Shown: positions 1-20,764, counted from the stretch's first letter. The stretch: 64,000 bases of DNA from Candidatus Flemingiibacterium sp. (GCA_045644145.1 JAZRGK010000005.1:20451-84450), one strand, 5' to 3'. Notes: generated from the sequence alone by a model not told the origin. Numbers and translations are program-made.

Positions 1-389
1 TGCGACATAAATGTCATATCTCGTACAAGTTGTGGTCTTGGACCGACAATGCTTATATCCCCTTTTAAGATGTTCCACAACTCAGGAAGCTCGTCCAACG
101 ACGTACTCCGCAAAATTTGCCCATACTTGTTCAAACGCATATGATCTGGAAGGAGAATGCCATTTTTGTCCTTCTTATTGCTCATCGTCCGAAATTTTAC
201 GAGTCGGAATATTTTTTCCTTCCCGGTATTTGGGTCGATTCTACCGGGGCGAAGCTGAGTAAAGAAAGGATTACCTCTCATTAAAATCGCGCCGCTGACT
301 ATTAATATCAGAAATATTGGCGACAATACAAACAGCGCCAAAAGCGATAGGATGAAGTCAATAACTCTCTTAAAAAACTTAGCGTACAT
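1..389 (-). CDS. Bacterial sugar transferase (polyprenyl-phosphate sugar phosphotransferase, PglC/EpsL-like); C-terminus runs off the window
   Basis: My own minus-strand translation from the ATG at 389 gives MYAKFFKRVIDFILSLLALFVLSPIFLILIVSGAILMRGNPFFTQLRPGRIDPNTGKEKIFRLVKFRTMSNKKDKNG...LDELPELWNILKGDISIVGPRPQL. It has one N-terminal TM helix followed by the KFRTM and DELPxLxNxLxGDMSxVGPRP-type motifs of the PF02397 family. It is absent from the ORF track because it has no stop inside the window. Confidence 0.8.
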   Translation of the reverse strand, partial: MYAKFFKRVIDFILSLLALFVLSPIFLILIVSGAILMRGNPFFTQLRPGRIDPNTGKEKIFRLVKFRTMSNKKDKNGILLPDHMRLNKYGQILRSTSLDELPELWNILKGDISIVGPRPQLVRDMTFMS

Positions 390-411
390 AATATGTAATC
401 CCCAAACCAAT

Positions 412-1671
412 TCAAGCAAAACAGCTTTTCACAATATCAATTACAGCATTCTGTTCTTCTACCGTCATCTTGTTATCGCTCGGCAAACACAAACCTCGTT
501 CGAAAATATCCGCACCTACATCAGCCACGCCGCCTGCAATATATGCATTTGTTCTGCATCGTCCGCTACCATCTACCGTGACAAATTCGTGCATACGGTA
601 CATCGGCTGCATGTGCATCGGTTTCCAAATCGGTCTGCCCTCTGCATTATATTTTGCAAGAATCTCCAAAATCTCGGTTGGACAGGTCTTGCCGGATTCT
701 TTTATGTACAGCGTATTTGAATCATCTCTGATTTGCCGACACATATACTCTTTATCAATAATCATAGCAGACAGCCAATAGTTAGGCACTGTACCGGCAA
801 CAATAGGATTCATCTGAATCGGCAAGTCCTTGAAACTGTCACGGTATCTTTCATAAATCGCTTTTTTCTGCGCGATGTGCTCCTCCAAATATGGATACTG
901 ACCGCGCACAACACCGGCTACCACATTGCTCATTCGATAGTTGTAGCCGACTTCCTCATGCTGATACCAAGGCGCATTTTCTCTTGCTTGCGTTGACCAC
1001 TTGCGAACCATATTTGCAACTTCGACATCGTTAGTAAGCAGGCAGCCACCTGAAGATCCGGTAATTATTTTGTTGCCGTTATAACTCACAGCAGAGTAAT
1101 CTCCAAAAGAACCGCAGGGCTTACCGTTGACAGTTGCGCCCATTGCTTCGGCGGCATCTTCAATCAAAAGCGCACCGTGACGTTCGCATATTTCTTTAAT
1201 CAGATCAACTCGTCCGGGAAAACCGTAAAGCTCGGCATATACGACCAACTTAACATCCGGATACAAATTGAATGCTTTTTCGAGCGCGGCAGGATCCATA
1301 TTCCATGAGCTTTCCTCTGTATCTATAAATACGGGAATTCCATCCTCATAAACAACCGGATTCAAAGTGGCAGCAAATGTCATGTCGGAACAGAAAACAC
1401 GTTTCCCCTCGAGAGCCCCATGGCTAATAGCAGGCTTGCCGTACAATGTTTCTCCGGCGTGCTTAACAGCCAAGTGGAGTGCAGCCGTGCAGCATGAAAG
1501 TGCTACCGCATATTTCGTACATGCGTTTTCTGCAGCAATGCGTTCCACCTCGTTGATGTTTTCACCGACCGTGCTCATCCAGTTGGTTTGATATGCCTGC
1601 TTTATATATTTCATCTCATCCCCGTGCATGGTGCGGGTGGAGAGCCAAATCTTTTTATCAAATTTCACCAT
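412..1671 (-). CDS. DegT/DnrJ/EryC1/StrS-family PLP-dependent sugar aminotransferase (PglE/EpsN-like)
   Basis: 419-aa ORF. The N-terminus IWLSTRTMHGDEMKYIKQAYQTNWMSTVGENINEVE and the region SYNGNKIITGSSGGCLLTND (lysine in NGNK as candidate PLP lysine) are typical of this family. AAGGAG-type RBS upstream. It sits directly upstream of the sugar transferase. Confidence 0.88.
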   Translation of the reverse strand: MVKFDKKIWLSTRTMHGDEMKYIKQAYQTNWMSTVGENINEVERIAAENACTKYAVALSCCTAALHLAVKHAGETLYGKPAISHGALEGKRVFCSDMTFAATLNPVVYEDGIPVFIDTEESSWNMDPAALEKAFNLYPDVKLVVYAELYGFPGRVDLIKEICERHGALLIEDAAEAMGATVNGKPCGSFGDYSAVSYNGNKIITGSSGGCLLTNDVEVANMVRKWSTQARENAPWYQHEEVGYNYRMSNVVAGVVRGQYPYLEEHIAQKKAIYERYRDSFKDLPIQMNPIVAGTVPNYWLSAMIIDKEYMCRQIRDDSNTLYIKESGKTCPTEILEILAKYNAEGRPIWKPMHMQPMYRMHEFVTVDGSGRCRTNAYIAGGVADVGADIFERGLCLPSDNKMTVEEQNAVIDIVKSCFA

Positions 1672-1750
1672 AGCTACTCCTTTTTTCTACGTGCATGGTT
1701 TGGCGCAGAATCAATTAATGTAGATTGTAGAAGCCCAAAAACCAAATATG

Positions 1751-2929
1751 TTATTCCGAGAAATTAAAGTCGAGTCCAACAAAGTTCAGCGATTGCTGAT
1801 ACTCCGATACTTCTTCAACTTTAAAGCTTAGCTTGCGATTCACAAATCGCTTAATTTTATCTGCGTGGAATATCCTATCAATAATTCTTATTATCCACAT
1901 AATCGGAAGAAGAAACGGTAGTTTCTTTAAAAGCGGATACATATTTCTCATATCGGCGTATCTCGGGAAGAGCGCTTTGAACACACGCTTACACTTGGCA
2001 GCTTGGGCTGATTTTCCATTCTTTGTACTCTTTAAAGCGCTGGATAGATTAGAGTTGTGCGTGCGTCCATATTCTCCGCTGGTAAAGATAAACTGTGTGA
2101 TGAACTCGGTCTTTTCATCTCCTGCGCAATCTTCAAACCATACTTGCAGAGTGCGCATAATATTATCATAAAACTCTGAAAGTTGAAGCTTTTTAAGCTC
2201 TCTTCTGATATATTCCTCGTCCATATCCGGATTGTGTATGCGGTAAACCCACAAATCAACTATGTGGCGAATGCCAATCCCAGCATCCCGATAATGTTTG
2301 GCGAAATGAGTGAATAGATAGATCATTTCATCGCAGGTAGTCATTTTGTAGCGGTATGAATATCCATCCATTAACGTCGCAAGCTTCCAACCGTCACCAT
2401 AATACTCATAGTAGTCCTTATTGTACGAGGGAATTAATCGCTTATGGAATTCAATATTGACCGGTTTCTTTTCCCATACAAGCTCGTGGTCGCTTTCGTA
2501 TTTTTCTATGTAACCGAACCCGTTCATGATGCTGCGTATAGTTTCATACTGGGCACAATCAATGAGAATATCCGCATCTCCCATTCGTCGCATCTCTGCG
2601 TGTGGGTAGAGATTTTTCAGAAGCGTTCCCTTTAAGGGCATATGGTTAACGCCTTGTGATTCAAATGCATCCATGATTCGACGGATCGCGGCTAACTGTG
2701 TTTCACTAACCGAGATGCCTTGATAAACGCGCATTGATTCTTCACGCATCGGCTCGGAATTTTTGCTCACACCGCAAAGTAGGGCACCGTAATACGCCAT
2801 AACATCTACGCCGTGACCTTTCGCAATTTGAAAGACTTCTGTCAAATCAAAATCACCGGGCAGAGGACAAGATTGGCTTGTGAGCGCACTTTTTATTAAT
2901 ATTATTAATGCGTGCTGTTGTTTCGTCAT
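1751..2929 (-). CDS. Uncharacterised nucleotidyltransferase-family protein (NTP_transf_5-like)
   Basis: The ORF 1751..2962 contains MPLKGTLLKNLYPHAEMRRMGDADILIDCAQYETIRSIMNGFGYIE, the G-x-pattern plus D-x-D signature of this family. I moved the start to the ATG at 2929 (MTKQQHAL) because GGAGGG lies 7 nt upstream. Confidence 0.65.
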   Translation of the reverse strand: MTKQQHALIILIKSALTSQSCPLPGDFDLTEVFQIAKGHGVDVMAYYGALLCGVSKNSEPMREESMRVYQGISVSETQLAAIRRIMDAFESQGVNHMPLKGTLLKNLYPHAEMRRMGDADILIDCAQYETIRSIMNGFGYIEKYESDHELVWEKKPVNIEFHKRLIPSYNKDYYEYYGDGWKLATLMDGYSYRYKMTTCDEMIYLFTHFAKHYRDAGIGIRHIVDLWVYRIHNPDMDEEYIRRELKKLQLSEFYDNIMRTLQVWFEDCAGDEKTEFITQFIFTSGEYGRTHNSNLSSALKSTKNGKSAQAAKCKRVFKALFPRYADMRNMYPLLKKLPFLLPIMWIIRIIDRIFHADKIKRFVNRKLSFKVEEVSEYQQSLNFVGLDFNFSE

Positions 2930-3038
2930 CTTCGTTCCCTCCGTGAATATCACTGTATACACAGTTATTTCTTTTGCCGGTTTTGCGATGATATTTTAGC
3001 TGTACCAATAATACGAAAGATACAAATCTCCAAATTAT

Positions 3039-3067
3039 ATTATATCACAACTGTGACAATTTGTCAA
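3039..3067 (-). promoter_or_regulatory. Consensus sigma-A promoter for the EPS operon (minus strand)
   Basis: The minus strand reads TTGACA (3067..3062), a 17-nt spacer, then TATAAT (3044..3039), about 110 nt upstream of the 2929 start. Confidence 0.7.
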
Positions 3068-3393
3068 TACATATAACTAATGAAATAAACGTACGCTGTT
3101 TTTATCAGTGGAATTAAGAAGGGAGTAATAATAATATTTTATATAAACTGTGATACAAGTGATAATAGTGCACCAATCTTTCTTCTCCAATACCAACCCA
3201 ATAAGTTTATTCGCTCTATCTGCCATAAAAAGCGGAATGTTAAACACACCCCCACCAAACTTTAGATTGTTATTAAACATCGGTTTCGCTGAAAAATCAA
3301 CCGAATCACATAATTATTTACAATTAGGTGGGTTGATATCACACTTTTATAACCGAAGTAATGACATCACAAACAGAAGATGAATAACCCCAA

Positions 3394-3427
3394 AGAGGAA
3401 TCGTACACGATTTGGTACGATTCCTCT
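3394..3427 (-). terminator. Hairpin just downstream of the 285-aa gene
   Basis: 13-bp perfect stem agaggaatcgtac / gtacgattcctct with an 8-nt loop, 10 nt after the stop at 3437. The U-tract on the minus strand is short (TTT). Confidence 0.5.
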
Positions 3428-3436
3428 TCTGCATAT

Positions 3437-4294
3437 TCACAAGATTACCCGATACAGACTCACACCAAATCCGGTCTCCTTCCGCTCCATAAACTCGGGC
3501 GGAAGTTTCGAAAGATACTGCTTACCCAGCGATGAGCTGCCGAGGTACGCTCCCATATTGGTCACGGGCAGTACCACCCACTCGCCGTCTGCGGGCTTAT
3601 TAGCAATGTAGTATTCTGCAAGCGTAAGTATTACCTTCAGCGGCACGCCGTCCGGCTTTAACTGCTCAATCTTTTCAATCTGCTCCGCTGAAAGCTCGAC
3701 CGATTCACGACGTAGGGGACCAAGCTCCAGCGCATCGGCGATGGCGGTGTCAAAGAGCAAAAGCCACTCGGCGTTGGTGTTCGAGGAGAACAGCGGCACT
3801 TGAAACTGCCTCACTTTCTTCTCCCACTCCGCTTCCCATTCCGCCGTCCGCTCGGAAAGGCAGTGCAGATGCTTATTGACAGCTTCCTTATTTTCACGCA
3901 CAAACTCTGCCACAGCATGAACGTGCCGCCAGTACCATCCCACGCCGTTTTCATCCACAAGCTCGGGAAACTCCTTGTGATACTCCGTAAAGCAAACGTC
4001 AATCTGCCACTCCTTCGCCGGAGTGGCTTTTTTTCGTTTCGGGATACTGCACCATGCACAGAGCGCTCGGCGTGCGTACTCGATCTGCTCATACGGATCA
4101 CCGTTTTTTATTGATCCGTCGAGATTGTGGAAAAGATATCCGCGTGCAAGAACCGTGAAAATTCGGTTGAAGCCCTTGAAATCCCTCATCATATCCGCGG
4201 TGAATCTGCCAAGAAAAGATGTATCCTTGCCATTCGACACGGTATAGACCGGTGGTTCTGTATATGCCTTGAATTCATTCCATTCGTTTGTCAT
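3437..4294 (-). CDS. Hypothetical protein, partner of the RdRP/YonO-like polymerase (no family recognised)
   Basis: 285-aa ORF. Its ATG (4294..4292) overlaps the TGA (4293..4291) of the upstream 1020-aa gene as ATGA. No TM helix and no motif that I can assign. Confidence 0.75.
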   Translation of the reverse strand: MTNEWNEFKAYTEPPVYTVSNGKDTSFLGRFTADMMRDFKGFNRIFTVLARGYLFHNLDGSIKNGDPYEQIEYARRALCAWCSIPKRKKATPAKEWQIDVCFTEYHKEFPELVDENGVGWYWRHVHAVAEFVRENKEAVNKHLHCLSERTAEWEAEWEKKVRQFQVPLFSSNTNAEWLLLFDTAIADALELGPLRRESVELSAEQIEKIEQLKPDGVPLKVILTLAEYYIANKPADGEWVVLPVTNMGAYLGSSSLGKQYLSKLPPEFMERKETGFGVSLYRVIL

Positions 4295-7200
4295 GACGCA
4301 CCGCCTTTCTTCGCATAGCGTTCAACATAATCCCACAGCACATCCCATAAGAAAGTCCGCTTTCCAAGTGCGACAGCGTATTTGACCGCCTCGCCGGGAC
4401 TGCATATTTCCTTCACCAGACCAAGGCATCGTTCTGCCACCGCCTCACGGTAATCCTTGCCCCAAACCTTGTCCACATAAGCACCTACCAGCGCCGCCAT
4501 CTCCGCGGAATCGCCGTCGTAATGCAGGCGTTCCCGATTCTGCAGGATATTTTCGTTATCGGTGTCGCATATCAATGCACCGAGCACACGGTAACCTCCA
4601 CAGCTGAAGTCGGCGAAGAGATCGTAATACGGCACAAATTCCTCATCGGGCAGATATTTGTGCAGGAACAGTACGCGCTTATCCTCGGGCAGAAACTGCC
4701 ACTTATCCTCGCGAATGGCGCGGCGGATCTCGCTGACACGCTTGGCAGGAAGATTCACAAACAGCGCATACAGCTCGTCCACATCGTATACATTCTCCTC
4801 ATCCCTCATATACAGCACACGAGCAATACCGTTTTTCTTTGCCTTTAATTTCGGCGGATGCAAGCTGGCTCGGATACGCTTCAGGCATCGTTCGTAGATG
4901 TCGATCAACGTGCGCATCTGATCCATGGTGTCGCGGTTCAGATTATCTTCCCATCCGTCCTCTGCGGCAAAAGTGAACAATTCCGATGCTTTTGCTGGTT
5001 TCCGCTTGGCTTTTGGCGTATGCTTTTTTAGCATGTCCGCGTAGTACGGCAGTTTTTCGAGATTCGAGCTGACCGAATTCCAATCGGTTTTCGCAAAATA
5101 TGCCTTGAACCGCTCGTCAAAGGTAGGCTCATACCAAGCACGATGCTCCTCGGAATCCTCCATAAGATTCTTGTATTTGAGGAAATTGCTCTTCTTGCGC
5201 TTGCCGTCAAGATACACCGACAGATCGGGCTTGATGCCGCTCTTGGCGGAGTCGATCTCAAGTCCCGTGAGAATCGCTAATTCTTCGGTTTCGCGGCGAT
5301 TTTTCTCTTTGGTTTCGGCATCGGTATTCTCATCGTAAGCGATGATGCTACGCTCCAGCGCGGCGTTGGAAATCTGCCCGACACGTGAAGAAAAGGTATT
5401 CTTAACCGTCTCAAACCGCGCCTGCCAGTCGGATGCATCGCGAATCTGCGGCTCGGCAGAGGGAATCTGCAGAAGCGGCAGGTTGTTTTTGCTGTCAAAT
5501 TCGTTGTAATCCACGCCGGAAAGATAGTTGCCGTACACGCAGTCGTTGAGAATCGGCTCAGCGATGGTTTTGATCATATCGCCGTCGAAATCTGCGCCGC
5601 CAAGACGTTCCGCGATCAGCGAGCAGGAGCCGACCATCACCACGTCGGTGAGGTGGGAGAGATATTTCTGCCGCAGCGGACCGATGCTCTCCGGCGGTTT
5701 TACCATCACTTCCTCATTGCGTGCAATGTGCGGATTGCGGAGAAGTGTGTATCGCTCCTGCTTTTCATATGCCGCACCGGGCGCGTAGAATACCGTTTCC
5801 ACGAAGGTTTCTGCATGAAGCGCGGACTGTAATTCGTTCGCCGCGGCTGAAACCTTAAAATGCGGCTCGATCAAATAATACAGCAGTTCCATCAGATCAG
5901 CGGAAAGATAGCGGTTATCGCCCTTGATATACAGCTTGCCCACCGCGTAATTTTTCAGCACTTTTTCCGCCATAGCATCAAGTTCGGATGTAAAATACGA
6001 TTCATGAATGAACAGAGGATTCTTCCTCAACAATTGCGCCATGCGGTAATTCTTGCTCTTTCTGCGAAAGCTCCAACGCTCGGCGCGGGAGATGAAGTAG
6101 TCGCGGCGGAATTCATCGTTTGCTGTTAAATCATAATACCGCTGCTCGGTTGCTTTTGTCAGCCAGCTGCGATCATCCTCGGCAGGGCTGTGATTCCATC
6201 CCAGCGGAAGGTCAGCGGGACGGAACAGTTCGGCTCTCAGGGAGATCGTATTGAGGAACTGGTAATTTAACTCAGTCAAATCTTCGGGCGTGTCCTTACC
6301 GACACCCGTGATATACAGTGCATGGCGGTACCGTTCGCAGGTAGCAATATAGCGATACCAGTGGTAGCCGTTTTCGTTGAGCCAACCGAAGCCCTTGCAT
6401 TGGCTCTTAGTCAGAATCAGCTTGATTTCATTCACGGGATGAGGATTGCCCCAGATATCCTTGATGAAGGTGATGCCGACCTCGCGCATCATGGACGGAA
6501 AATCCACCTCGTGCACCATGCCTTTGATGTATGGCATACGGATTTGGAAGGAATGGTGGGTGTGCTTGCCACAGAGAATCGTATCGATCTCATTGGCAAA
6601 TGCAGGCGAGATCAATCCTTCGCCATCGAATTCCGTGATAGGAATCCGAGTCTCCGTTTCACGACGTTCGTATTTGCGTACGCTCCCCTCACCGCTTGCA
6701 TCTTCCATCGTGATCACGTTTGCACGAGCCATATAGTTATGCGGATTATCCACGATGACAATGCTGTGATTACGCCACAAATAGGGATGCTCGATTCGTG
6801 TGCCGCTTGAAAACAGCAGACCGTTGTACGCGTACAACTTCGACAGCTGACATTCGCCTATCTTCATGTCAAGCATCATCCGAGCGCGGACGGTATCGTA
6901 CACATCGGCACGCAGAAACGACAGACGTGTATTGCGGCTCATACTGGCAGAGCGCTCAAACGCAAGATAGCGCTGTGCACCGCTGCCGAAATCCAGCGTG
7001 ATTCCCTCTGGGCGGAACATGGACTCCGCTTTCTTTTGCAGCAGAGCGATTTTCGGATTCTTCGCGTCGCGATCAAAGATTCCGGAGAAGTCTATATACA
7101 CGATAACATCGGCGAGATCATCGATAACGGTATCCGTGGATACATGGCGGTAGTCATTGCCTTTCAGTTCACACATAATCTGAAAGAAGATCGCGTTGTC

Positions 7201-7353
7201 CTCCTGCACCGTTTCACCGTGACGAAGAATGACACTCTCCGTTTCGCGCTTGTTGAGTGCGATGGTGTATATATCAGCATCGTCCGTCAGCTTTGCATAT
7301 GCGAGAATCGCCTGCGCAGACAGCATATGGATTTTGTATCGGATCTCGGGCAT
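4291..7353 (-). CDS. Single-subunit two-barrel RNA polymerase homolog (eukaryotic-type RdRP PF05183 / SPbeta YonO family)
   Basis: 1020-aa ORF with GGAGGTG 6 nt before the ATG. The motifs appear in the family order. They are RYLAFERSASMSR (aa 128-140), AYNGLLFSSG (aa 175-184), EFDGEGLISPAFANEI (aa 241-256) and SFQIRMPYIKGMV (aa 268-280). They continue with TLLRNPHIARNEEV (aa 536-549), GGADFDGD (aa 585-592, DNA 5578..5601), VGQISNAAL (aa 658-666) and LEIDSAKSGIKPD (aa 698-710). Confidence 0.8.
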   Translation of the reverse strand: MPEIRYKIHMLSAQAILAYAKLTDDADIYTIALNKRETESVILRHGETVQEDNAIFFQIMCELKGNDYRHVSTDTVIDDLADVIVYIDFSGIFDRDAKNPKIALLQKKAESMFRPEGITLDFGSGAQRYLAFERSASMSRNTRLSFLRADVYDTVRARMMLDMKIGECQLSKLYAYNGLLFSSGTRIEHPYLWRNHSIVIVDNPHNYMARANVITMEDASGEGSVRKYERRETETRIPITEFDGEGLISPAFANEIDTILCGKHTHHSFQIRMPYIKGMVHEVDFPSMMREVGITFIKDIWGNPHPVNEIKLILTKSQCKGFGWLNENGYHWYRYIATCERYRHALYITGVGKDTPEDLTELNYQFLNTISLRAELFRPADLPLGWNHSPAEDDRSWLTKATEQRYYDLTANDEFRRDYFISRAERWSFRRKSKNYRMAQLLRKNPLFIHESYFTSELDAMAEKVLKNYAVGKLYIKGDNRYLSADLMELLYYLIEPHFKVSAAANELQSALHAETFVETVFYAPGAAYEKQERYTLLRNPHIARNEEVMVKPPESIGPLRQKYLSHLTDVVMVGSCSLIAERLGGADFDGDMIKTIAEPILNDCVYGNYLSGVDYNEFDSKNNLPLLQIPSAEPQIRDASDWQARFETVKNTFSSRVGQISNAALERSIIAYDENTDAETKEKNRRETEELAILTGLEIDSAKSGIKPDLSVYLDGKRKKSNFLKYKNLMEDSEEHRAWYEPTFDERFKAYFAKTDWNSVSSNLEKLPYYADMLKKHTPKAKRKPAKASELFTFAAEDGWEDNLNRDTMDQMRTLIDIYERCLKRIRASLHPPKLKAKKNGIARVLYMRDEENVYDVDELYALFVNLPAKRVSEIRRAIREDKWQFLPEDKRVLFLHKYLPDEEFVPYYDLFADFSCGGYRVLGALICDTDNENILQNRERLHYDGDSAEMAALVGAYVDKVWGKDYREAVAERCLGLVKEICSPGEAVKYAVALGKRTFLWDVLWDYVERYAKKGGAS

Positions 7354-7429
7354 GAGCTCACCTCCGTGGATTTGTTTATATGGTTATTATATCATAAATT
7401 CGTGAATTTTTCTACCACGGGAGTAAAAA

Positions 7430-7448
7430 GAACACTACTCCCATAATA
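7430..7448. repeat. Direct repeat copy 1: GAACACTACTCCCATAATA
   Basis: 18 of 19 nt are identical to 8120..8138. This copy is also the 3' arm of a small hairpin, gggagta(N10)tactccc. Confidence 0.8.
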
Positions 7449-7480
7449 GAAAAAGCACCGCAATCAAAAACGGTGCTTTA
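7447..7480 (-). terminator. Rho-independent terminator after the HTH antitoxin gene
   Basis: Stem aaagcaccg / cggtgcttt (7452..7460 and 7471..7479) with a 10-nt loop. On the minus strand it is followed by a TTTT run, 20 nt after the stop at 7499. Confidence 0.6.
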
Positions 7481-7498
7481 ACTTCATATTTGCATTAT

Positions 7499-7810
7499 TT
7501 AGATAACTATGATTCCCGAGCTTTTTGGAAAAGTTGGATCGTTGCGTGTCAGAGTAAGCAAACGACAGGCGGCTCCCTCCGGATGATTGCGCCCGGCTTC
7601 CCATGCTTCAACGGTTTTAACAGATACGCCCATATACTTAGCAAATAAAACCTGCGTAAGCCCGGTACTCTTACGGATTTCTTTGATTTCACTGGGAGTA
7701 AAAGCGTCCACGGGCGCAATACTCAAAACGGTAGTCTTTGCTTTGAGATTCCCTTTTTCGTATTCAATGGCCTGCTCAAGTCCGGTTTTGATATCATCAA
7801 ATATTCCCAT
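7499..7810 (-). CDS. XRE-family HTH antitoxin (HigA/MqsA-like, COG2944-type)
   Basis: 103 aa. The segment EIKEIRKSTGLTQVLFAKYMGVSVKTVEAWEAGRNHPEGAACRLL is a canonical HTH_XRE domain, preceded by the short N-terminal segment typical of toxin-first TA modules. AAGGAG RBS upstream. Confidence 0.8.
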   Translation of the reverse strand: MGIFDDIKTGLEQAIEYEKGNLKAKTTVLSIAPVDAFTPSEIKEIRKSTGLTQVLFAKYMGVSVKTVEAWEAGRNHPEGAACRLLTLTRNDPTFPKSSGIIVI

Positions 7811-7829
7811 GGTACATCTCCTTTCAAAC

Positions 7830-7982
7830 TTAATTATCTTTTAACTGACGATCGAGAATTGCCACCAGCTGTTTCAGCTCGTTACGTTCAGACTGTGTCA
7901 GATTGTCTTTCTCATTCTTAGGATACCCTATTAAATAGTAGATGTCAAGCGGCGAAAGATGAAATTCAAATAAAAGATACAA
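7830..7982 (-). pseudogene. Truncated RelE/ParE-superfamily toxin remnant (C-terminal ~50 codons only)
   Basis: My own translation gives (L)YLLFEFHLSPLDIYYLIGYPKNEKDNLTQSERNELKQLVAILDRQLKDN*. The G(Y/F)xKNEKxNLT...LK..V ending is typical of the toxin paired with this antitoxin type. The frame is closed by TAA at 7985..7983, there is no ATG, and it is far too short for a functional toxin. Confidence 0.55.
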
Positions 7983-8119
7983 TTAAAATATTGCCCTCAC
8001 GTTGCCCTGTACGGCAATGAACATCGCAATCGAACGTGTACTCGCCTATATATCAGAACGCGCCGTGTGCGCCCTCGTGTGGGGCATGAGCGGACTGTTA
8101 AACAGGACTACGGTAATAT

Positions 8120-8138
8120 GAATACTACTCCCATAATA
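8120..8138. repeat. Direct repeat copy 2: GAATACTACTCCCATAATA
   Basis: 18 of 19 nt are identical to 7430..7448. The two copies bracket the antitoxin and toxin-remnant cassette. Confidence 0.8.
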
Positions 8139-8159
8139 AAACATTGGCAATCACAGATT

Positions 8160-8193
8160 ATGCTCTCCGATTTATCTCGGAGGGCATTTTTTG
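8160..8193 (+). terminator. Strong intrinsic terminator on the + strand with no annotated + gene upstream
   Basis: Stem atgctctccga / tcggagggcat (one G-U pair) with loop tttatc, followed by TTTTTT (8187..8192). Confidence 0.6.
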
Positions 8194-8227
8194 TTTGCAA
8201 TAAATCTTATGAAAGGAGGATTCTGAA

Positions 8228-8392
8228 TTGAATGAATCCGACAACATTTATGCACCGCCGTACGAGATCATCGACGGATGCCTGTATTACAGAAAGATCT
8301 CAAAGCAGGGCGAACAGTATCTCCGCCTCTGCAACTTCGCGCCGCGCATCGGCTCGGAGATTGCTCTTACCAAAATATTCAACCGGAGGTGA
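8228..8392 (+). pseudogene. Short ORF that looks like the N-terminal stub of a larger element protein (possibly primase/replication-type)
   Basis: AAAGGAGGA lies 7 nt before a TTG at 8228. The translation LNESDNIYAPPYEIIDGCLYYRKISKQGEQYLRLCNFAPRIGSEIALTKIFNRR* stops abruptly. Downstream sequence stays partly open in another frame (FLLKQGKQRVWVPAEKSGVPSQSMIG). The family assignment is only an impression. Confidence 0.3.
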
Positions 8393-8543
8393 TTACAGTG
8401 ATTCTCACGGCATAAATTCCTGCTGAAGCAGGGCAAGCAGAGGGTTTGGGTACCCGCCGAAAAATCTGGCGTGCCATCCCAATCCATGATCGGGGCAGAA
8501 GCCCCAAACCCCACTATAAAACAAAGAAACGAGGTACAGAACA

Positions 8544-8933
8544 ATAGCAGACAACAATACGAATTCAAACGAATCCCATCGCGAACGCGACAAGAAAATT
8601 TCCTTCTGGGCAAGCGAAACTGAACGACGGAAGATCAAAAAGATCATCGCAAAGTCGGGACTGTCCCAGCGCGAGTATCTTCTCGGTGCGGCACTCGGGC
8701 GGACGATCTATCAGGTGAACGAGCTGAAGCCTGTGCTCGCCGAGCTGAAAGCCATCGGCAGAAATCTCAATCAGCTCACGGTGCTGTCGCATCAAGGAAA
8801 GATCACGACCGTGAATCTAACCGAAGCGGTGTGCACATTGCAGAAAATCTATGCCGCGATCAACGTGCTCCACGATGTGTGCGACGGTGTAATTGCAAGA
8901 GGAAGCGAGGTGGATGACGATGGCGACCTGTAA
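8544..8933 (+). CDS. mobC: MobC-family relaxosome accessory protein (start codon uncertain)
   Basis: The frame is open from 8520. The translation reads ...RERDKKISFWASETERRKIKKIIAKSGLSQREYLLGAALGRTIYQVNELKPVLAELKAIGRNLNQLTVLSH..., which is RHH-like followed by the xxGxNLNQ motif of PF05713. The first canonical start is the GTG at 8715, which would delete the RHH part. GAGG sits 9 nt before an ATA at 8544. Confidence 0.6.
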   Translation: MADNNTNSNESHRERDKKISFWASETERRKIKKIIAKSGLSQREYLLGAALGRTIYQVNELKPVLAELKAIGRNLNQLTVLSHQGKITTVNLTEAVCTLQKIYAAINVLHDVCDGVIARGSEVDDDGDL

Positions 8934-10716
8934 TTATATCCCGGCGAAGAAGCAGACTCGCGGCGCGATGCAGGCAGTCATCCGCTATGTTTCGCAGGAC
9001 ATGAAGACGCTTGATGAACTCGGGCAGCGCTATCTCACCGGCATCAACTGCATCGCTCCTGCCGCGTATGATGAGTTCATGGCAACCAAAAATCTCTACG
9101 GCAAGCGCGATGGCGTGATGTATTATCACTACACGCAGTCATTCGCGCCGGGTGAGATCAAGGATTATGACACAGCGCACGAGATCGGTATGAAGCTTGC
9201 AAAAGAAATGTTCCCCGGCTTTGAGGTGTTGGTGGCAACGCATCTTGATGCTTACGATGACGATTGCCGTCAGCGTGTGCACAACCATTTCGTCATTAAC
9301 AGCGTAAGCATCGATACCGGACTGAAGCTTGATATGGGTCCGCGCACGCTTGAAAAGATGCGCAAGATCAGCGACCGCCTCTGCGATGAGCATGGACTGT
9401 CGGTGTTGCCACAGTACGAACAGCACTTTGATACCAAAGGTTTAGGTCCAAGAGAATACCGTGCGGCCCTTCGCGGCGACGCGTGGAAGTTCCGCACAAT
9501 CTATGATATCGAGGAATCCATGAAGCGTGCGGCATCCAAAGCAGAGTTCCTATCGCTGATGACGTCGCGAGGCTACTCGGTAAGATGGGAAGACAACCGA
9601 AAGTATATTACTTACACCTGCCCAAACGGCATGAAGGTGAGGGACAACAAATTACACGAAGTGAAATTTCGAAAGGAGAATATGGAATATGAATTTGCAA
9701 TCAGACAACAAATCTTTGAACACAGCACTGCAGAAGCTCAAGCAAACAACGGCGGAAACGGTACAGACGGTGACCGAAACACCGTATCAGCCTATCGTAT
9801 ACGCGATCCCGAAGGAGGATTGGAAAGCTTTTCTGGAATACATGAAGGCGACATCAGGCTTCCATCCTACGCTTTTCTCGAAGTTCCGGAATCTGGAGGA
9901 GTGCATCCTTACAAAGGAGGACTGGAACACGCTGATACACTCCCTCAACGGATGGGCGAACGCTGTGGGGGAAGAAGTGGAGGAATCTGCGAAGAAAACC
10001 GAGGACCGGATGCAGAAAATCCTCACGGAGAGCCGCGAACTCTTGTCACAGGATGGGAAGACGCGCGAATCATTTTTCTTCGATCTTCGGCAGGAAGTGA
10101 ATGGGCAGATTGGGGAGATAGAGGATTTGCTCTCGAAGATGAAGAAATGGATTCTGTGGACACTGCTTACGAATGTGGGACTGACATCCGTGTTGAGTTT
10201 GGTGATCTGTCTTCTGATGAGGTGATGGGCTTCTTCGAGAACGAGGATAACTCGGATGACAATGACATCGACGAAGAATACCCCGACGCGCAAATCGAAT
10301 ATCTACTGGAAGCCGAGCATGATGGCAGCGCATACGCCGCATATCTGCTTGGCAGAATTTATATGAACGGCGAGGTTGTTCCAAAGGACATCCCCGAAGC
10401 GATACGGCATTTCGAGATCGCGTCGGCGCGTGGCAATTCATATGCAGACTACCGGCTGGGGCAGATCTATCTGTTCGAGTCGGATTTTTTTGACATAGAT
10501 GCCGCGCTCGATCATCTGAACCGCTCGGCACAGGCAGGAAACGAATTTGCCGCATTGGCACTTCAGCGGATGGCAGAGAATTCTTTCCTTGCCATCACAA
10601 CGAATGTGCTGGAGCTTGTAGGCGGTCTGTGCGATATTGAACCGCGCCGACCGATCAAGGACTGTACCACAATACCGCAGAAACGGGAGCGCAGAAAATG
10701 GGAACAGGGTATGTAA
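8920..10716 (+). CDS. Relaxase / mobilisation nuclease (MobA/VirD2-type, PF03432) with Sel1-like repeats near the C-terminus
   Basis: The ORF is listed as 8893..10716. I start it at the ATG at 8920 (MATCNYIPAKK), which has GAGGTGG 8 nt upstream. The histidine motif is ATHLDAYDDDCRQRVHNHFVINSVS. It is followed by a low-complexity G/E/D/R linker. Then come Sel1/TPR-like repeats (SAYAAYLLGRIYMNGEVVPKDIPEAIRHFEIASARGNSYADYRLGQIY). It overlaps the mobC stop by 14 nt. Confidence 0.85.
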   Translation: MATCNYIPAKKQTRGAMQAVIRYVSQDMKTLDELGQRYLTGINCIAPAAYDEFMATKNLYGKRDGVMYYHYTQSFAPGEIKDYDTAHEIGMKLAKEMFPGFEVLVATHLDAYDDDCRQRVHNHFVINSVSIDTGLKLDMGPRTLEKMRKISDRLCDEHGLSVLPQYEQHFDTKGLGPREYRAALRGDAWKFRTIYDIEESMKRAASKAEFLSLMTSRGYSVRWEDNRKYITYTCPNGMKVRDNKLHEVKFRKENMEYEFAIRQQIFEHSTAEAQANNGGNGTDGDRNTVSAYRIRDPEGGLESFSGIHEGDIRLPSYAFLEVPESGGVHPYKGGLEHADTLPQRMGERCGGRSGGICEENRGPDAENPHGEPRTLVTGWEDARIIFLRSSAGSEWADWGDRGFALEDEEMDSVDTAYECGTDIRVEFGDLSSDEVMGFFENEDNSDDNDIDEEYPDAQIEYLLEAEHDGSAYAAYLLGRIYMNGEVVPKDIPEAIRHFEIASARGNSYADYRLGQIYLFESDFFDIDAALDHLNRSAQAGNEFAALALQRMAENSFLAITTNVLELVGGLCDIEPRRPIKDCTTIPQKRERRKWEQGM

Positions 10717-10782
10717 ACAGAATAATCCTCCCGAAACAGGAGGAAAATAAAAACAGATATTATGAAAGAACGAGGTAAATGA

Positions 10783-10959
10783 ATGGATAAATACAAAAAC
10801 AGCGATAACAGAGAAAAGCGATTTGCCGAGCAGGCATGGCTCAACTATTTCAATCGCTTCCTCTTTGAAGAAGGCACGATTAGTGAAAAGGAGTACAAGC
10901 GAATGACCGAAAAGATTGCAGAACGCACTGTAAGGGCGGAACATCAGCAGATATTATGA
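10783..10959 (+). CDS. Small hypothetical protein (58 aa) downstream of the relaxase
   Basis: My own translation gives MDKYKNSDNREKRFAEQAWLNYFNRFLFEEGTISEKEYKRMTEKIAERTVRAEHQQIL*, with GAGG 7 nt upstream. It falls below the ORF-track length cutoff. Confidence 0.5.
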   Translation: MDKYKNSDNREKRFAEQAWLNYFNRFLFEEGTISEKEYKRMTEKIAERTVRAEHQQIL

Positions 10960-11040
10960 GTTTTTTGCATGACGGTGCGAAAACGTGTTTTCAACCAAAA
11001 CAAGGGTAAGCGCGAGGTAGGATAGCGCGATTACTTCTGC

Positions 11041-11086
11041 GTTAACGAGGGCAAAATGTAAAATTATCAAATTTACCCTCGTTAAC
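11041..11086. repeat. 46-nt inverted repeat abutting the ATPase promoter
   Basis: GTTAACGAGGGCAAA...(loop)...ATTTACCCTCGTTAAC. The outer 11 bp are perfect, and it lies immediately 5' of a TTGACA -35 box. Confidence 0.7.
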
Positions 11087-11115
11087 TTGACATTATCTAA
11101 AAAATATGATATAAT
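11087..11115 (+). promoter_or_regulatory. Consensus sigma-A promoter for the AAA+ ATPase gene
   Basis: TTGACA (11087..11092), a 17-nt spacer, then TATAAT (11110..11115). Confidence 0.7.
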
Positions 11116-11126
11116 ACTAACGAACA

Positions 11127-12374
11127 ATGAAAGGAGCGATGACGGTGAACAAAAAGATCTACACAAGAAAGTATTATATCGATAAAATCCGTGGCTTTTA
11201 TAATAGCGATCTCATTAAAGTCGTTACCGGTATCCGCCGCTGCGGTAAATCCTGCTTTTTGTTATCTGTTATGGAAGATCTGAAGGCACACGGCGTCAAA
11301 GAAAAAGACATCTTATATCTCAATCTCGATAAGCGCGGATATCGAAAGATCAAAACTCCCGATGCACTTGAGGAAGCAATAGAAGCTCTAATTACCGACG
11401 ACGATTTCAAGTATCTTTTTATCGATGAAGTTCAGAATGTTAATGGATTTGAGGAGGTTATAAACGGTTTTCGTGAGGACGGCAATTTTTCTATCTTTAT
11501 AACCGGTTCCAACTCCTATCTTCTCAGCGGTGAGCTTGCCACAAAGCTAACCGGACGATATATTGAAATCGAAATGTTTACTCTAAATTTCCGCGAATAT
11601 CTTGAAATGAAAGCCTTTTTCGGCAAGGAGATCAAAGCGAATAAGGTCGAGGAATTTAACGAATATATCCGCTTTGGCGGTTTCCCGAAAGTTCTTGAAT
11701 TTGACGATCCGAGCGATAAGGATACCTATATTTCAGAGGTCATTTCACAAATACTTGACAAGGATGTAGTAAAGCACAAGAAGATCCGAAACCGTTCGGT
11801 ATTTGATAAGGTAATGACTTACGTTATCAACAATTTCGGAGCTACAATGAGCCTTTCGAGTATAGCGGAATATTTTGATAAACAGGAGCATATCAGTATT
11901 CGCACAGAAACACTCAATAATTATTTGCAGATACTCGCAAATGCTAAGATTATATACAAATGTCCACGCTTTGACGTTAAATCCAAAAAATCTCTGCGTG
12001 GCGAGCAAAAATATTATCTTGCTGACCTTGGTATCTATTTTTCTCGCAACGTGGACGCTCGTATCAATTACGGACCTGTGCTTGAAAATATCGTATATAC
12101 CTATCTGTCTGCGAAAAATTACAAGATCAGCGTTGGACGCATCGGCAAATTAGAGTGCGATTTCATTACCCGTGTCAGCGATGAGTACAGATATATTCAA
12201 GTGGCGATGACGATCATGAGTTCCGATACCGAGGAACGTGAATACAAGCCCTTCACGATGATACGGGATAATTACCCCAAATATCTGCTCACTATCGACA
12301 CTTTGCTTCAAAAGCGCGACGGTGTGATACACAAAAATATTATTGAATTTATCTCGGCAGATGAAAGCCTGTAA
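11127..12374 (+). CDS. AAA+ ATPase with C-terminal DUF4143-type domain (COG1373 family)
   Basis: Walker A TGIRRCGKS, Walker B LFIDEVQ, then GSNSYLLSGELATKLTGRYIEIEMFTLNFREY. The true start may be the GTG at 11145, since AAGGAG at 11131..11136 lies 8 nt upstream of it. By eye it is much more AT-rich than its neighbours. Confidence 0.8.
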   Translation: MKGAMTVNKKIYTRKYYIDKIRGFYNSDLIKVVTGIRRCGKSCFLLSVMEDLKAHGVKEKDILYLNLDKRGYRKIKTPDALEEAIEALITDDDFKYLFIDEVQNVNGFEEVINGFREDGNFSIFITGSNSYLLSGELATKLTGRYIEIEMFTLNFREYLEMKAFFGKEIKANKVEEFNEYIRFGGFPKVLEFDDPSDKDTYISEVISQILDKDVVKHKKIRNRSVFDKVMTYVINNFGATMSLSSIAEYFDKQEHISIRTETLNNYLQILANAKIIYKCPRFDVKSKKSLRGEQKYYLADLGIYFSRNVDARINYGPVLENIVYTYLSAKNYKISVGRIGKLECDFITRVSDEYRYIQVAMTIMSSDTEEREYKPFTMIRDNYPKYLLTIDTLLQKRDGVIHKNIIEFISADESL

Positions 12375-12388
12375 CTTCAAAAATCAGC

Positions 12389-12420
12389 AAAAGGTGTAGG
12401 AAATTCCTATACCTTTTTTG
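12389..12420 (+). terminator. Rho-independent terminator after the ATPase gene
   Basis: aaaaggtgtagg aaatt cctatacctttt followed by a T-run. Confidence 0.7.
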
Positions 12421-12629
12421 CTTGCAAAATTGAATACTGCAGTACAAATCAGATCATGAAGGCTTTTTGCCATGCAGGGAAGGAGGAATCTTACCGCAAA
12501 GCACTTGCGATATATAAACACCAAAAAACATTTGACATATTGCGATTTTAGTATTGCAATATAGTGTTCTTTGTGATATAATAATTACAAACAGATAATG
12601 ATACAACGAACTTTACAAGGAGAAATACA

Positions 12630-14321
12630 ATGGATATACTTAACATCCGCGCACTGCTGCGGACAAAATCAATATACGAAATCCCACTTCGCGTGACGTT
12701 CTACGCCCGCGTATCCACGGACAGCGACGAGCAGTTAAACTCCCTCGACAACCAAATTTCATATTACGAAAATTTCATTAAAAGCAACACACTGTGGACT
12801 TTCGTCCCTGGCTACATTGATGAGGGACTTTCCGGCATCTCCACGAAGAAGCGTAGACATTTCAACGAGATGATTGCCGATGCAAAGGCGGGGATGTTTG
12901 ACCTCATCGTCACGAAGGAAATCTCCCGATTTGCCCGTAACACACTCGATTCACTGCAATACACACGCGAGCTGCTCGGCTTGGGAGTCGGAGTGTTCTT
13001 CCAAAACGATAACATTAACACCCTCGACGAGGATGCAGAGCTTCGCCTCACGATCATGTCCTCAATCGCCCAAGACGAGCTTCGCAAGCTGTCGTCCCGT
13101 GTAAAATTCGGACATCAGCAGGCAATTAAATCAAATGTAGTCCTCGGCAACAGCCGCATCTTTGGATACAAAAAAGATGACAAACGCCTTGTCATTGACG
13201 AAACACAAGCACCCATGGTGCGCGATCTGTTCCGACTGTACGCCACGGGTGAGTACAGCATGAAACAACTTGAAACGCTGTTCTACGAGCAAGGCTACCG
13301 CAACTACAACGGCAACAAGATCGCCCACACCACAATGTCGAACATCATATCCAACCCGAAATACAAGGGCTATTACGTCGGCAACAAGGTGAAGATCGTT
13401 GATATGTTCACCAAAAAACAAAAATTCCTGCCGCCCGAGGAATGGGTGATGTTCAAGGACGAAACTGGCGAAATCGTACCGGCAATCGTAACCGAGGAGG
13501 TGTGGGACAAGGCGAACGAAGTGCTTGCTCGCCGAAGCGAAGATGTAAAGAACCGTCAAGGCATCTGCAACCACGCAAATCTGCTCACGGGCAAGCTCTA
13601 CTGCACGCACTGCGGACAGCCCTACTACCGCCGCGAATCCAAGGACAAGAACGGCAATATCAACTCCAAATGGGTATGCTCCGGCAAGATCAACAACGGC
13701 GCGGATTCCTGCCCGTCCTTCCCGATCTACGAAGCAGAGATCAAGCCGATCCTCTACGATGTATTCAGCGAAACGAGAGTGGACGTAGAAGCGCTTCTTG
13801 CGGAATACACAGAAATGTTCAAATCCATGGAAGCCGATGACGAAACCGCAAAGCAGATCGCCGAGCAAAAGCGCATCATCGAGCTTGCCGAGCAAAAGAA
13901 AAACAAGCTCCTTGAGCTTGTTACAATCGGTTCTGTCACGGCGGCGAACTTCAAATCCATGACCGACGCCTGCGACCGAGAGATCGAGGAAGCCGGCGAA
14001 GCCATCGCCGAGCTTGAAAAGCAGATGTTCACGAAAGAGGAATACAAGCGGCACATCGCCGAGGTGAAAGCCCGTCTCGACGCAGCGGTGAGGGATGCGT
14101 CGACCGGAATGATCACGCCGGAATTTGTGGCGCAGTATATCGACAAAATCACGGTCACAATAACCGACGATGATACAGCGAACTTGAATATCAAGATCTT
14201 TACGGGCAAAAACACGGAGAAATGGCTTGAAAAGCTCGCAGAACACCACCGCGGTCGTACGGGTAACATTATGAAGAAGATGATCGAGAAGTACGAGAAC
14301 GATCTTAAGGCAGGCAAATAA
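12630..14321 (+). CDS. Large serine recombinase (TnpX/TndX-like: resolvase domain + recombinase domain + zinc ribbon + coiled coil)
   Basis: 563 aa. The segment RVTFYARVSTDSDEQLNSLDNQ carries the catalytic Ser motif. It is followed by LIVTKEISRFARNTLDSLQYTRELLGLGVGVFFQNDNINT. A zinc ribbon is present as CTHCGQPYYRR...WVCSG...CPS. The C-terminus is an E/K-rich coiled coil. AAGGAG RBS upstream. Confidence 0.9.
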   Translation: MDILNIRALLRTKSIYEIPLRVTFYARVSTDSDEQLNSLDNQISYYENFIKSNTLWTFVPGYIDEGLSGISTKKRRHFNEMIADAKAGMFDLIVTKEISRFARNTLDSLQYTRELLGLGVGVFFQNDNINTLDEDAELRLTIMSSIAQDELRKLSSRVKFGHQQAIKSNVVLGNSRIFGYKKDDKRLVIDETQAPMVRDLFRLYATGEYSMKQLETLFYEQGYRNYNGNKIAHTTMSNIISNPKYKGYYVGNKVKIVDMFTKKQKFLPPEEWVMFKDETGEIVPAIVTEEVWDKANEVLARRSEDVKNRQGICNHANLLTGKLYCTHCGQPYYRRESKDKNGNINSKWVCSGKINNGADSCPSFPIYEAEIKPILYDVFSETRVDVEALLAEYTEMFKSMEADDETAKQIAEQKRIIELAEQKKNKLLELVTIGSVTAANFKSMTDACDREIEEAGEAIAELEKQMFTKEEYKRHIAEVKARLDAAVRDASTGMITPEFVAQYIDKITVTITDDDTANLNIKIFTGKNTEKWLEKLAEHHRGRTGNIMKKMIEKYENDLKAGK

Positions 14322-20642: not shown

Positions 20643-20764
20643 GATACTCAAAATGCCGAGGGCATGCTAAATTGTTGACAGCGCAAACGTTATATGGTAT
20701 AATATTCTTGTAGTAATGCCCTTTTTGTATGCTTTTCACCCATCTGCCCCTCAAGGAGGACAAA

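Follow-up and report, generated by a model that had tools for sequence, protein, structure and literature searches.

What does an intact relative of the RNA-dependent RNA polymerases (RdRPs) found in eukaryotes do on a small, non-phage island of a bacterial chromosome? The question is raised by a stretch of 64,000 nucleotides from Candidatus Flemingiibacterium sp. (GCA_045644145.1 JAZRGK010000005.1:20451-84450; hereafter the window), in which a preliminary description, made from the sequence alone, had reported a gene with the motif set of the RdRP/YonO two-barrel RNA polymerases among mobilization genes. We followed this gene through profile searches, structure prediction and a comparison of its homologs and their genomic surroundings. 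The protein family itself is already known (Pfam RdRP); what is new here is a non-phage, partner-dependent, island-borne clade of YonO/RdRP-type polymerases.

A predicted single-chain two-barrel polymerase

The predicted product of the gene is a single-chain two-barrel polymerase that belongs to the QDE-1/RDR2/YonO lineage and has its catalytic residues complete. As had been reported, its reading frame is uninterrupted from the ATG start over 1020 amino acids (aa), and the strong ribosome-binding site is present (GGAGGTG, 6 nt ahead of the ATG), with a TGnTATAAT promoter further upstream. All eight motif blocks of the preliminary description were recovered, at aa 128-140, 175-184, 241-256, 268-280, 536-549, 585-592, 658-666 and 698-710. 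The protein scores 51.1 bits with Pfam PF05183 against a gathering threshold of 23.8 (E 1.2e-13), in an alignment that spans aa 564-734 and profile positions 409-559. Across 38 aligned homologs, reaching down to 22% identity, the invariant residues are D243, Q270, R272, P274, K277, G278, R539, P541, H542, G586, D588, D590, G591, D592, E699, D701 and K704, among them all three aspartates of the DFDGD loop (D588, D590 and D592). A set common to all two-barrel polymerases was described by Ruprich-Robert & Thuriaux, comprising the aspartate triad, the first-barrel acidic and basic residues and an RxP motif (PMC2919709). The invariant positions include this set (D243, R272, K277, R539, P541 and the triad), residues being assigned to Rpb1/Rpb2 positions via motif order, not superposition.

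An AlphaFold2 model built from the 38-sequence alignment has a pLDDT (predicted local distance difference test) of 87.1 and a pTM (predicted template modelling score) of 0.82. When the whole model was compared with the PDB using Foldseek, each of the 21 best matches of the predicted fold was either QDE-1 or the RDR2 of maize or Arabidopsis (E 3e-14 to 2.5e-10, probability 1.0), and the polymerase gp62 of Thermus phage P74 followed (E 1e-4); no bacterial RNA polymerase was matched significantly. Among viral models, the best matches were gut-phage proteins named 'RdRP' (6e-30 and 4e-24), followed by a P23-45 protein (2e-4). The crAss-like phage RNA polymerase, which had been named as a relative, did not hold up as a fold match (phi14:2 gp66, 6vr4_A; E 0.91, probability 0.11). 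The crAss-like enzymes and the virion RNA polymerases of Thermus phages P23-45/P74-26 belong to the same two-barrel superfamily and are likewise encoded by mobile elements, but they are phage transcriptases.

The other relative that had been named, YonO of phage SPbeta, was confirmed at the level of profiles. The family profile aligned by hhalign with the YonO ortholog of Spbetavirus BUCT082, which we recognised through synteny with HU-like and YonK genes, at a probability of 99.9% (E 7.2e-33) over polymerase aa 127-708 (511 columns). YonO shares with the window polymerase a single chain of ~100 kDa, both barrels and a mobile-element origin. It is only ~20% identical, however, has DFDYD in place of DFDGD, and is encoded by a phage of 125-135 kb rather than an 11-kb island, and the gene after it is unrelated to the one that follows the window polymerase. 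The BUCT082 ortholog, which also has the DFDYD loop, falls short of the Pfam RdRP model. Since the window polymerase passes that model, it appears to be nearer to the eukaryotic RdRP profile than the YonO ortholog tested. Conversely, QDE-1 and RDR2 share with it the fold, PF05183, the DxDGD loop and the first-barrel basic motif, yet they are only 12-16% identical to it with template modelling (TM) scores of ~0.4-0.46, and the window polymerase differs from both in its bacterial host, its obligate small partner and the absence of RNA interference (RNAi) machinery nearby.

Further searches placed the protein in PHROGs families phrog_8308 (7e-44, without known function) and phrog_4291 ('RdRP', 1e-4) and gave no match in NCBIfam or PADLOC, nor any in a PDB sequence search at E up to 10. 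Domain fusions were sought in 149 representatives, in which the long forms proved to be insertions within one architecture; the few C-terminal extensions, inspected by eye, contained nothing recognisable. No canonical primase domain, whether DnaG/Toprim or archaeo-eukaryotic primase (AEP)/PrimPol in type, was found in the polymerase by Pfam or NCBIfam scans, so any primase role would be analogous and not homologous.

These likenesses raise the idea that the enzyme copies RNA, converting an element transcript into double-stranded RNA or amplifying a regulatory RNA in the manner of QDE-1/RDR2. Its best structural matches are RNA-templated enzymes, and it satisfies the Pfam model that the YonO ortholog fails. 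Against this, QDE-1 also accepts DNA templates (PMC9508822), YonO is DNA-dependent (PMC5467207), no Dicer- or Argonaute-like gene occurs among the conserved neighbours, and the surroundings, with a relaxase and a helicase, are those of DNA processing. We consider an RNA-templated role very improbable.

A small partner is inherited with the polymerase

Directly downstream, and overlapping the polymerase stop codon, lies a second gene encoding 285 aa (Table 1), which, like the helicase association reported below, was absent from the preliminary description. It follows the polymerase in 67 of the 70 loci with at least 1 kb of downstream sequence, and the three loci without it are copies of one element (L005, L006, L071). 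With E-values of 4e-6 and 3e-5, on truncated open reading frames (ORFs), the partner profile also matches the genes just after two polymerases that share only 32-34% identity with the query, on short contigs whose context is informative for the partner alone. Because the partner follows even these distant polymerases, the two genes appear to be an old pair, inherited together. Relative to a copy ~85-90% identical (L007), the polymerase has a ratio of nonsynonymous to synonymous substitution (dN/dS) of 0.046 and the partner one of 0.094; for comparison, values relative to L005 are 0.05 for the recombinase and 0.16 for the relaxase. Polymerase and partner are thus a translationally coupled two-gene module under purifying selection, and the earlier suggestion that an intact polymerase is kept under selection on a decaying backbone is confirmed by its low dN/dS and by an intact sister element (see below). 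Not every copy is intact: in five contigs of metagenome-assembled genomes (L007 at 1-3170, L029, L037, L066 and L085) the polymerase frame is split, in L007 by stops within the N-terminal 175 codons, and these are either pseudogenes or assembly errors.

The partner itself gave no significant match in Pfam, PHROGs or PADLOC, and none of its 2158 homologs carries a Pfam domain. Its AlphaFold2 model (pLDDT 81.5) is mainly helical, and the C-terminal ~85 aa, comprising three helices and a beta hairpin, bear a weak likeness to winged-helix DNA-binding domains; with Foldseek the model retrieved nothing significant, PagR, CodY-C and CadC appearing at E 0.4-1.2. The partner profile had no match in the phage loci, so the phage relatives lack a partner. 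In Bacillus phage BUCT082 (L087, 1716-6870), the YonO ortholog stands between overlapping genes, a protein with a CoiA nuclease domain upstream and a 278-aa ORF downstream. This 278-aa gene of Spbetavirus was considered as a partner homolog and rejected (hhalign probability 0.1%).

The module occupies one end of mobilizable islands

A scan of one genome per species yielded 79 polymerase loci, nearly all in Oscillospirales (Ruminococcus, Acutalibacteraceae and Oscillospiraceae of rumen and gut, including complete genomes of cultured strains), and several genomes have two or three copies. ORFs were called in all 79 loci, clustered and positioned relative to the polymerase, and one island architecture recurs. 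On the strand opposite the polymerase, from far to near, lie a serine or tyrosine recombinase, often ParB, a PF03432 relaxase and a NikA/MobC/RHH (ribbon-helix-helix) accessory gene. Nearest to the polymerase comes one of three alternatives: a ~580-aa DUF927-like P-loop protein (borderline at full length, with 22.1 bits against a cut-off of 22.6), an AAA_25/DnaB_C-like ATPase, or one to three actin-like (ParM-like) ALP_N genes. Polymerase and then partner run divergently from this mob/helicase operon, and nothing is conserved beyond them, which marks the element end. Among the 40 loci with at least 6 kb upstream, a relaxase is present in 34, a helicase-like gene in 23 and actin-like genes in 9; a recombinase was found in 29 of the 33 loci with sufficient flank.

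Type IV secretion system (T4SS) genes, a canonical primase and Rep are all missing from the recurrent neighbour families of the polymerase loci. Since a recombinase and a relaxase are present and T4SS genes were not found, the polymerase-bearing islands of Oscillospirales are, by gene content, apparently integrative mobilizable elements of ~11 kb. Polymerase and partner are a fixed component of them, always at one element end. The non-phage, mobilizable setting that had been proposed from the window alone is therefore shared by the 79 genome loci. The chromosomal site differs between copies: the window element lies between NTP_transf_5 and HhH-GPD genes, and the ~85%-identical elements L250-L255 lie beside AraC/GH2. 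Many copies have ParB and actin-like partition genes, which suggests an autonomously replicating phase.

Individual loci carry additional genes. Antibiotic resistance is part of the cargo of some islands: a gene for chloramphenicol acetyltransferase (CAT; PF00302, E 9e-29) stands directly upstream of the polymerase, on the same strand, in L009 (7750-8427) and in five further loci (cluster c16). Near the module of L176, L193 and L183 there are HipA-like and Macro-domain genes. In L252, L253 and L255, a second large serine recombinase (530 aa; 1367-2959) abuts the element recombinase (2943-4634) with a 17-nt overlap, and the flank at this end varies between otherwise identical contigs, which suggests tandem accretion of elements at one site.

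The family is large. A word-indexed search returned 1749 polymerase homologs, most of 1000-1040 aa, and PF05183 was present in all 120 among the matches listed; the 90%-identity clusters that they represent contain, in some cases, 357-1169 sequences. When 50%-identity representatives were searched exhaustively, 1295 of them matched at E<=1e-3 and 414 did so at E<=1e-30. In IMG/VR, close relatives occur on two contigs only (51% identical at full length, and 59% on an end fragment), and the remaining phage relatives there reach at most ~28% identity. GenBank phages and PLSDB plasmids likewise hold only relatives of <=28% identity, in phages of Enterocloster, Thomasclavelia and Bacillus and in phage-plasmids of C. 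perfringens. With phage and plasmid relatives so distant, bar the two IMG/VR contigs, the window polymerase appears to be a member of a distinct, non-phage clade. One of the distant relatives is on the 36-kb C. perfringens plasmid NZ_MK275623 (L086), a phage-plasmid with terminase, portal and capsid genes, where a ~21%-identical homolog of 906 aa (8605-11325) comes right after a DEAD/DEAH helicase and a DUF3102/DnaJ protein; here too, the polymerase adjoins a helicase.

The statement that the known bacterial relatives are phage enzymes was incomplete. About 50 chromosomal YonO-like genes in Firmicutes, one of them in 'Bacteroides capillosus', had been listed in 2010 (PMC2919709); a paper of 2017 described such genes as intriguing (PMC5467207), and PMC7824862 speaks of 'transposon relatives'. 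Our literature search, incomplete for two likely sources, found no account of the island architecture, the partner, the helicase association or a function, and nothing linking PF05183 or YonO-like genes to mobilizable elements. 'Bacteroides capillosus' is now placed in Oscillospiraceae.

The window holds a decayed copy of an intact element

An intact sister element of 11 kb (L250), a member of P0391 (the same 90%-identity cluster) and present on 19 contigs, allowed the boundaries and the decay of the window copy to be read directly. It has eight genes, none of them T4SS-like: a recombinase (563 aa), a 58-aa ORF, a relaxase (598 aa), a NikA-like gene (130 aa) and a DUF927-like gene (579 aa), and, divergent from these, HTH_3 (103 aa), polymerase (1020 aa) and partner (285 aa). 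Blastn homology with L250 falls into four blocks, at 3392-7823, 7923-8362, 8364-10952 and 12572-14321, and ends 45 nt beyond the partner stop codon on one side and exactly at the recombinase stop codon on the other. The ends are located to ~20 nt, and no attachment-site repeats were identified. At the mapped left end, right after the partner stop, positions 3393-3428 form a perfect 14-bp inverted repeat with an 8-nt loop, which may serve as a terminator, belong to the attachment site, or do both. The features of the window element are collected in Table 1.

Table 1. Features of the polymerase-bearing element in the window (positions counted from the first nucleotide of the window)
Feature	Position	Strand	Basis or remark
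Whole predicted integrative mobilizable element, ~10.9 kb, decayed copy	3392..14321		blastn against intact L250; host genes on both flanks
Partner, 285 aa, no known domain	3437..4294	-	ATG overlaps polymerase TGA (ATGA)
RdRP/YonO-type single-chain two-barrel polymerase (predicted), 1020 aa	4291..7353	-	PF05183, AlphaFold2 model, Foldseek, hhalign, dN/dS
Metal-binding loop GGADFDGD, aa 585-592	5578..5601	-	G586, D588, D590, G591, D592 invariant
First-barrel catalytic blocks EFDGEGLIS (D243) and SFQIRMPYIKG (R272, K277)	6514..6633	-	D243, Q270, R272, P274, K277, G278 invariant
Host-type promoter TAGAAA-17-TATAAT with TG upstream, and ribosome-binding site GGAGGTG, of the polymerase operon	7360..7414	-	
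Motif copy B (TATTATGGGAGTAGT...), in a hairpin, 91 nt before the polymerase start	7434..7448	-	
HTH_3 (helix-turn-helix) regulator, 103 aa, own promoter and terminator	7499..7810	-	Pfam HTH_3 E 4e-8; conserved in place in L250-L255
Motif copy A, adjoining the mob/helicase operon	8124..8138	-	
Stub of DUF927-like (SaPI-Rep/Cch-type) helicase	8228..8392	+	aligns to N-terminus of the 579-584-aa gene of L001/L250
NikA/MobC accessory gene	8520..8933	+	frame open; GTG start of sister element lost
MobA/VirD2-type relaxase with Sel1 repeat	8893..10716	+	PF03432 E 1.5e-31
1.6-kb cargo insertion with AAA_14/DUF4143 ATPase (gene 11127-12374)	10952..12572	+	absent from L250
Large serine recombinase	12630..14321	+	Resolvase, Recombinase and Zn_ribbon_recom domains

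The relaxase, the serine recombinase, the stub ORF and the NikA/MobC frame without a start, all of which had been described, are present, and the decay that they suggested is borne out by L250. A 1.68-kb deletion removed all but the first ~45 codons of the helicase, the NikA start is lost, and a cargo insertion has entered. By comparison with L250, the true start of the relaxase is likely the methionine of MATCNY near 8920. The inserted AAA_14/DUF4143 gene matches the PADLOC candidate defence system PDC-S01 (E 2.8e-141) and has a perfect TTGACA-17-TATAAT promoter.

Two further points of the preliminary description required correction. The gene taken for a toxin-antitoxin (TA) remnant is HTH_3, has a perfect promoter and is conserved ahead of the polymerase in the intact sister, and is not clearly a decayed TA pair. 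A 29-nt direct repeat, considered as the scar of a TA-module insertion, was discarded as such, L250 having the same two copies around its HTH gene. The absence of phage structural genes, claimed for the whole window, holds for the element and for positions 1-25 kb, the scope that was checked.

An Rfam scan of the element gave nothing at E 0.1 or better. Outside the element, the window encodes a dockerin-containing protein of 868 aa (20729-23335) and polysaccharide-biosynthesis genes (DegT aminotransferase and NTP_transf_5; 412-2962), which together fit a cellulosome-bearing, Ruminococcus-like host. Polysaccharide-biosynthesis genes, including a DegT aminotransferase, also lie within 10 kb downstream of the 78%-identical element L005.

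Sister elements without the polymerase share a conserved intergenic site

As a control anchored on a different gene, we scanned metagenomes with the window relaxase and obtained 80 loci whose relaxases are 35-53% identical to it. The polymerase is present in 10 of them, with the partner wherever the flank allows, and is missing from many loci with ample flank. The AAA_25/NikA/relaxase/integrase backbone has one of two occupants in the slot that diverges from the helicase, namely polymerase and partner or a DUF6076 protein (E 6e-51). The latter is sometimes followed by a Sigma70_r4 protein and then by cargo comprising AbiU2 (HEPN), two D12 methyltransferases, an AlwI-type endonuclease and a HATPase protein; examples are L242 (3062-4928), L212 (253-7653) and L228 (2631-3296). 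Since the same backbone occurs with DUF6076 in the place of the polymerase, the module is dispensable to the AAA_25 backbone, and the side of the element on which it lies is also used by genes of regulation and defence.

In 35 of 65 loci, a 15-nt motif, GTGGGAG[CT]AGTAT[TC]C, precedes the polymerase start by 27-235 nt, without exception in the sense orientation. In most cases it makes up the 3' arm of a hairpin or comes after it, and a variant, GTGACGCAGTATTC, is found in one clade. Two direct copies are frequent. The window has two copies, where 0.07 would be expected by chance (the degenerate pattern has a background of ~1 per 85 kb), and L250 has the same two-copy layout, at 9306 and 9912. 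A looser 17-nt version, with the core required, was found in none of 80 phage loci. We considered the motif as the polymerase's own promoter or priming site and rejected such a polymerase-specific role. Because AAA_25/NikA/relaxase elements without the polymerase also have it, it appears to be a backbone site of the elements. With a hairpin followed by a TATCCT-like sequence, and a NikA-type accessory protein, it could be the nick region of an origin of transfer (oriT), or else an operator; two direct copies are unusual for an oriT and weigh against both being active nick sites. Between the motif copies, upstream of the AAA_25 gene, L235, L237, L244 and L246 (and L211-L226) have a conserved stretch of ~270 nt that is called as a dubious 76-131-aa ORF and is kept with or without the polymerase; it could be a regulatory RNA or a small gene.

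The occupants of the slot bear on whether the polymerase is an element-specific transcriptase. Like YonO, which serves the late genes of SPbeta, the enzyme would then transcribe part of the element independently of host RNA polymerase, with the partner as a sigma-like specificity factor; it might act on the helicase-NikA-relaxase operon, or make a regulatory RNA at the conserved intergenic site. Its homolog YonO is a DNA-dependent RNA polymerase that transcribes phage genes (PMC5467207), and P74 gp62 and P23-45, the single-chain two-barrel phage matches to the fold, are transcriptases as well. DUF6076 and Sigma70_r4 in the same slot of polymerase-less sisters suggest a transcription-control slot, the partner C-terminus is possibly a winged helix, and the + strand ahead of the window's mob operon showed no sigma-70-like promoter. 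However, the polymerase, recombinase and cargo genes of the window have good host-type promoters with an extended -10, and a private transcriptase is therefore unnecessary for these three. It would also be costly, at 3.9 kb of apparatus for about five genes, and the sole conserved non-coding motif near the polymerase occurs in elements without it. Finally, a relationship of the partner to the Sigma70_r4 or DUF6076 proteins was examined and dismissed, there being no homology to DUF6076 or to sigma factors. We regard the transcriptase reading as unlikely, while giving it more weight than the alternatives that follow from defence or from RNA templates.

The cargo of the polymerase-less sisters, with its methyltransferases, endonuclease, AbiU2 and HATPase protein on the same side, points in turn to accessory defence or anti-defence, in which a module at the probable leading end would protect the incoming element, or the host against phages, by making RNA, for example antisense, double-stranded or decoy RNA. 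HipA-like, Macro and CAT genes adjoin the module in some loci, and, like a shuffled cassette, the module turns up in company with relaxases of several lineages, recombinases of the Ser or Tyr type and any of three kinds of neighbour. Anti-defence genes are enriched in the leading regions of conjugative plasmids (PMC11541004), and the eukaryotic relatives work in RNA-based defence. Yet neither polymerase nor partner matched a PADLOC model, the module has no nuclease or other effector associated with it, and its position is invariant beside the backbone control region rather than in a variable hotspot. If the transferred strand is assigned correctly (see below), the module is also oriented opposite to typical leading-region genes, for which that strand is the template. 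A defence role is, on this balance, improbable.

Primer synthesis as the favoured function

We favour the reading that polymerase and partner are the element's own primase, a replication or establishment module; we put it forward tentatively, as possible but somewhat short of probable. After excision or transfer as single-stranded DNA (ssDNA), the relaxase and/or the adjoining self-loading helicase, of the DUF927-like SaPI-Rep/Cch type or the AAA_25 DnaB/RepA type, would expose single-stranded element DNA. The polymerase would start RNA on it de novo, as QDE-1 does, with the partner providing DNA binding or site choice through its winged-helix-like C-terminus, and host DNA polymerase would elongate the RNA primer. 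The module would thereby take the place of priming by host RNA polymerase at ssi/Frpo sites and single-strand origins.

Five considerations lead us to this reading. The elements hold a replication-type helicase and often partition genes, and no primase or Rep was found in them; the Pfam scan for canonical primase domains (DnaG/Toprim, AEP/PrimPol) was negative for the partner and the DUF927-like helicase too. A relaxase-driven element must start its complementary strand on ssDNA. QDE-1 begins RNA synthesis de novo on this kind of template (PMC9508822). The host-type promoters of the polymerase, recombinase and cargo genes leave no need for a private transcriptase at these three. Lastly, SCCmec offers a precedent for a non-canonical polymerase working with a small partner and a helicase (PMC7581432).

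The polymerase-partner-helicase trio would be a functional analogue of the SCCmec CCPol-MP-Cch2 replication module. There, too, a small island with a large serine recombinase and without a canonical primase encodes a non-canonical polymerase, a small partner without known domains (MP) and a self-loading helicase (Cch2/Cch, of which Cch has DUF927) (PMC7581432). CCPol has no homology to the window polymerase, however, being an A-family DNA polymerase that makes DNA primers, whereas the window enzyme has the two-barrel RNA polymerase fold; and SCCmec lacks a relaxase.

The step itself has several known solutions. Single-strand origins and the plasmid primases Sog and TraC serve the same complementary-strand start on ssDNA, and at Frpo/ssi sites the primer is made by host RNA polymerase. 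Frpo/ssi hairpins are single-strand promoters and priming sites, at which the complementary strand of transferred or rolling-circle ssDNA is started, as proposed here (PMC11541004). All of these systems use the host multisubunit enzyme or DnaG/Toprim-type primases, unlike the two-barrel enzyme of our proposal. To our knowledge, no element-encoded two-barrel polymerase has been described as priming on ssDNA.

Several observations weigh against a primer-making role. YonO, the only characterised bacterial relative, is a transcriptase and not a primase (PMC5467207). The polymerase-less AAA_25/NikA/relaxase sisters also have no recognisable primase, and their backbone manages without one. About a quarter of the polymerase-bearing elements have ParM-like genes and no helicase, and the window copy, which lost its helicase and kept an intact polymerase, fits a helicase-independent role equally well. 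The winged-helix likeness of the partner is weak (Foldseek E 0.4). In addition, if the inverted repeat lies 5' of the nick, as is usual, the polymerase gene would enter as its sense strand, a polarity read from motif orientation alone; the enzyme could then not be produced from the DNA as it arrives, and would need to act at a later stage or to cross over as a protein.

A wider claim would be that an RdRP-type polymerase with a small subunit is the replicative or establishment primase of very abundant gut islands, and so adds another primase class to DnaG, AEP and the A-family enzyme of SCCmec, with no relationship to any of them. In that case, the non-phage clade would offer the best living model of what the RNA-silencing polymerases of eukaryotes descended from. 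We consider this claim rather doubtful.

Implications for mobile elements of gut Clostridia

Single-chain two-barrel polymerases are rare, and this clade gives them a home in small mobilizable islands, which abound in the gut Clostridia of humans and ruminants. The system is abundant and experimentally tractable, since there are cultured carriers, among them Ruminococcus sp. JL13D9 (L047) and JE7B6 (L067), R. flavefaciens ND2009 (L050) and Acutalibacter sp. 1XD8-36 (L029). If the module primes DNA synthesis, it would be a new route by which mobile elements gain independence from host priming; if it transcribes, it would be the first private RNA polymerase of a mobilizable island. Either role bears on the spread of these islands, some of which carry CAT and defence genes, and the clade bears on the origin of the eukaryotic RNAi polymerases.

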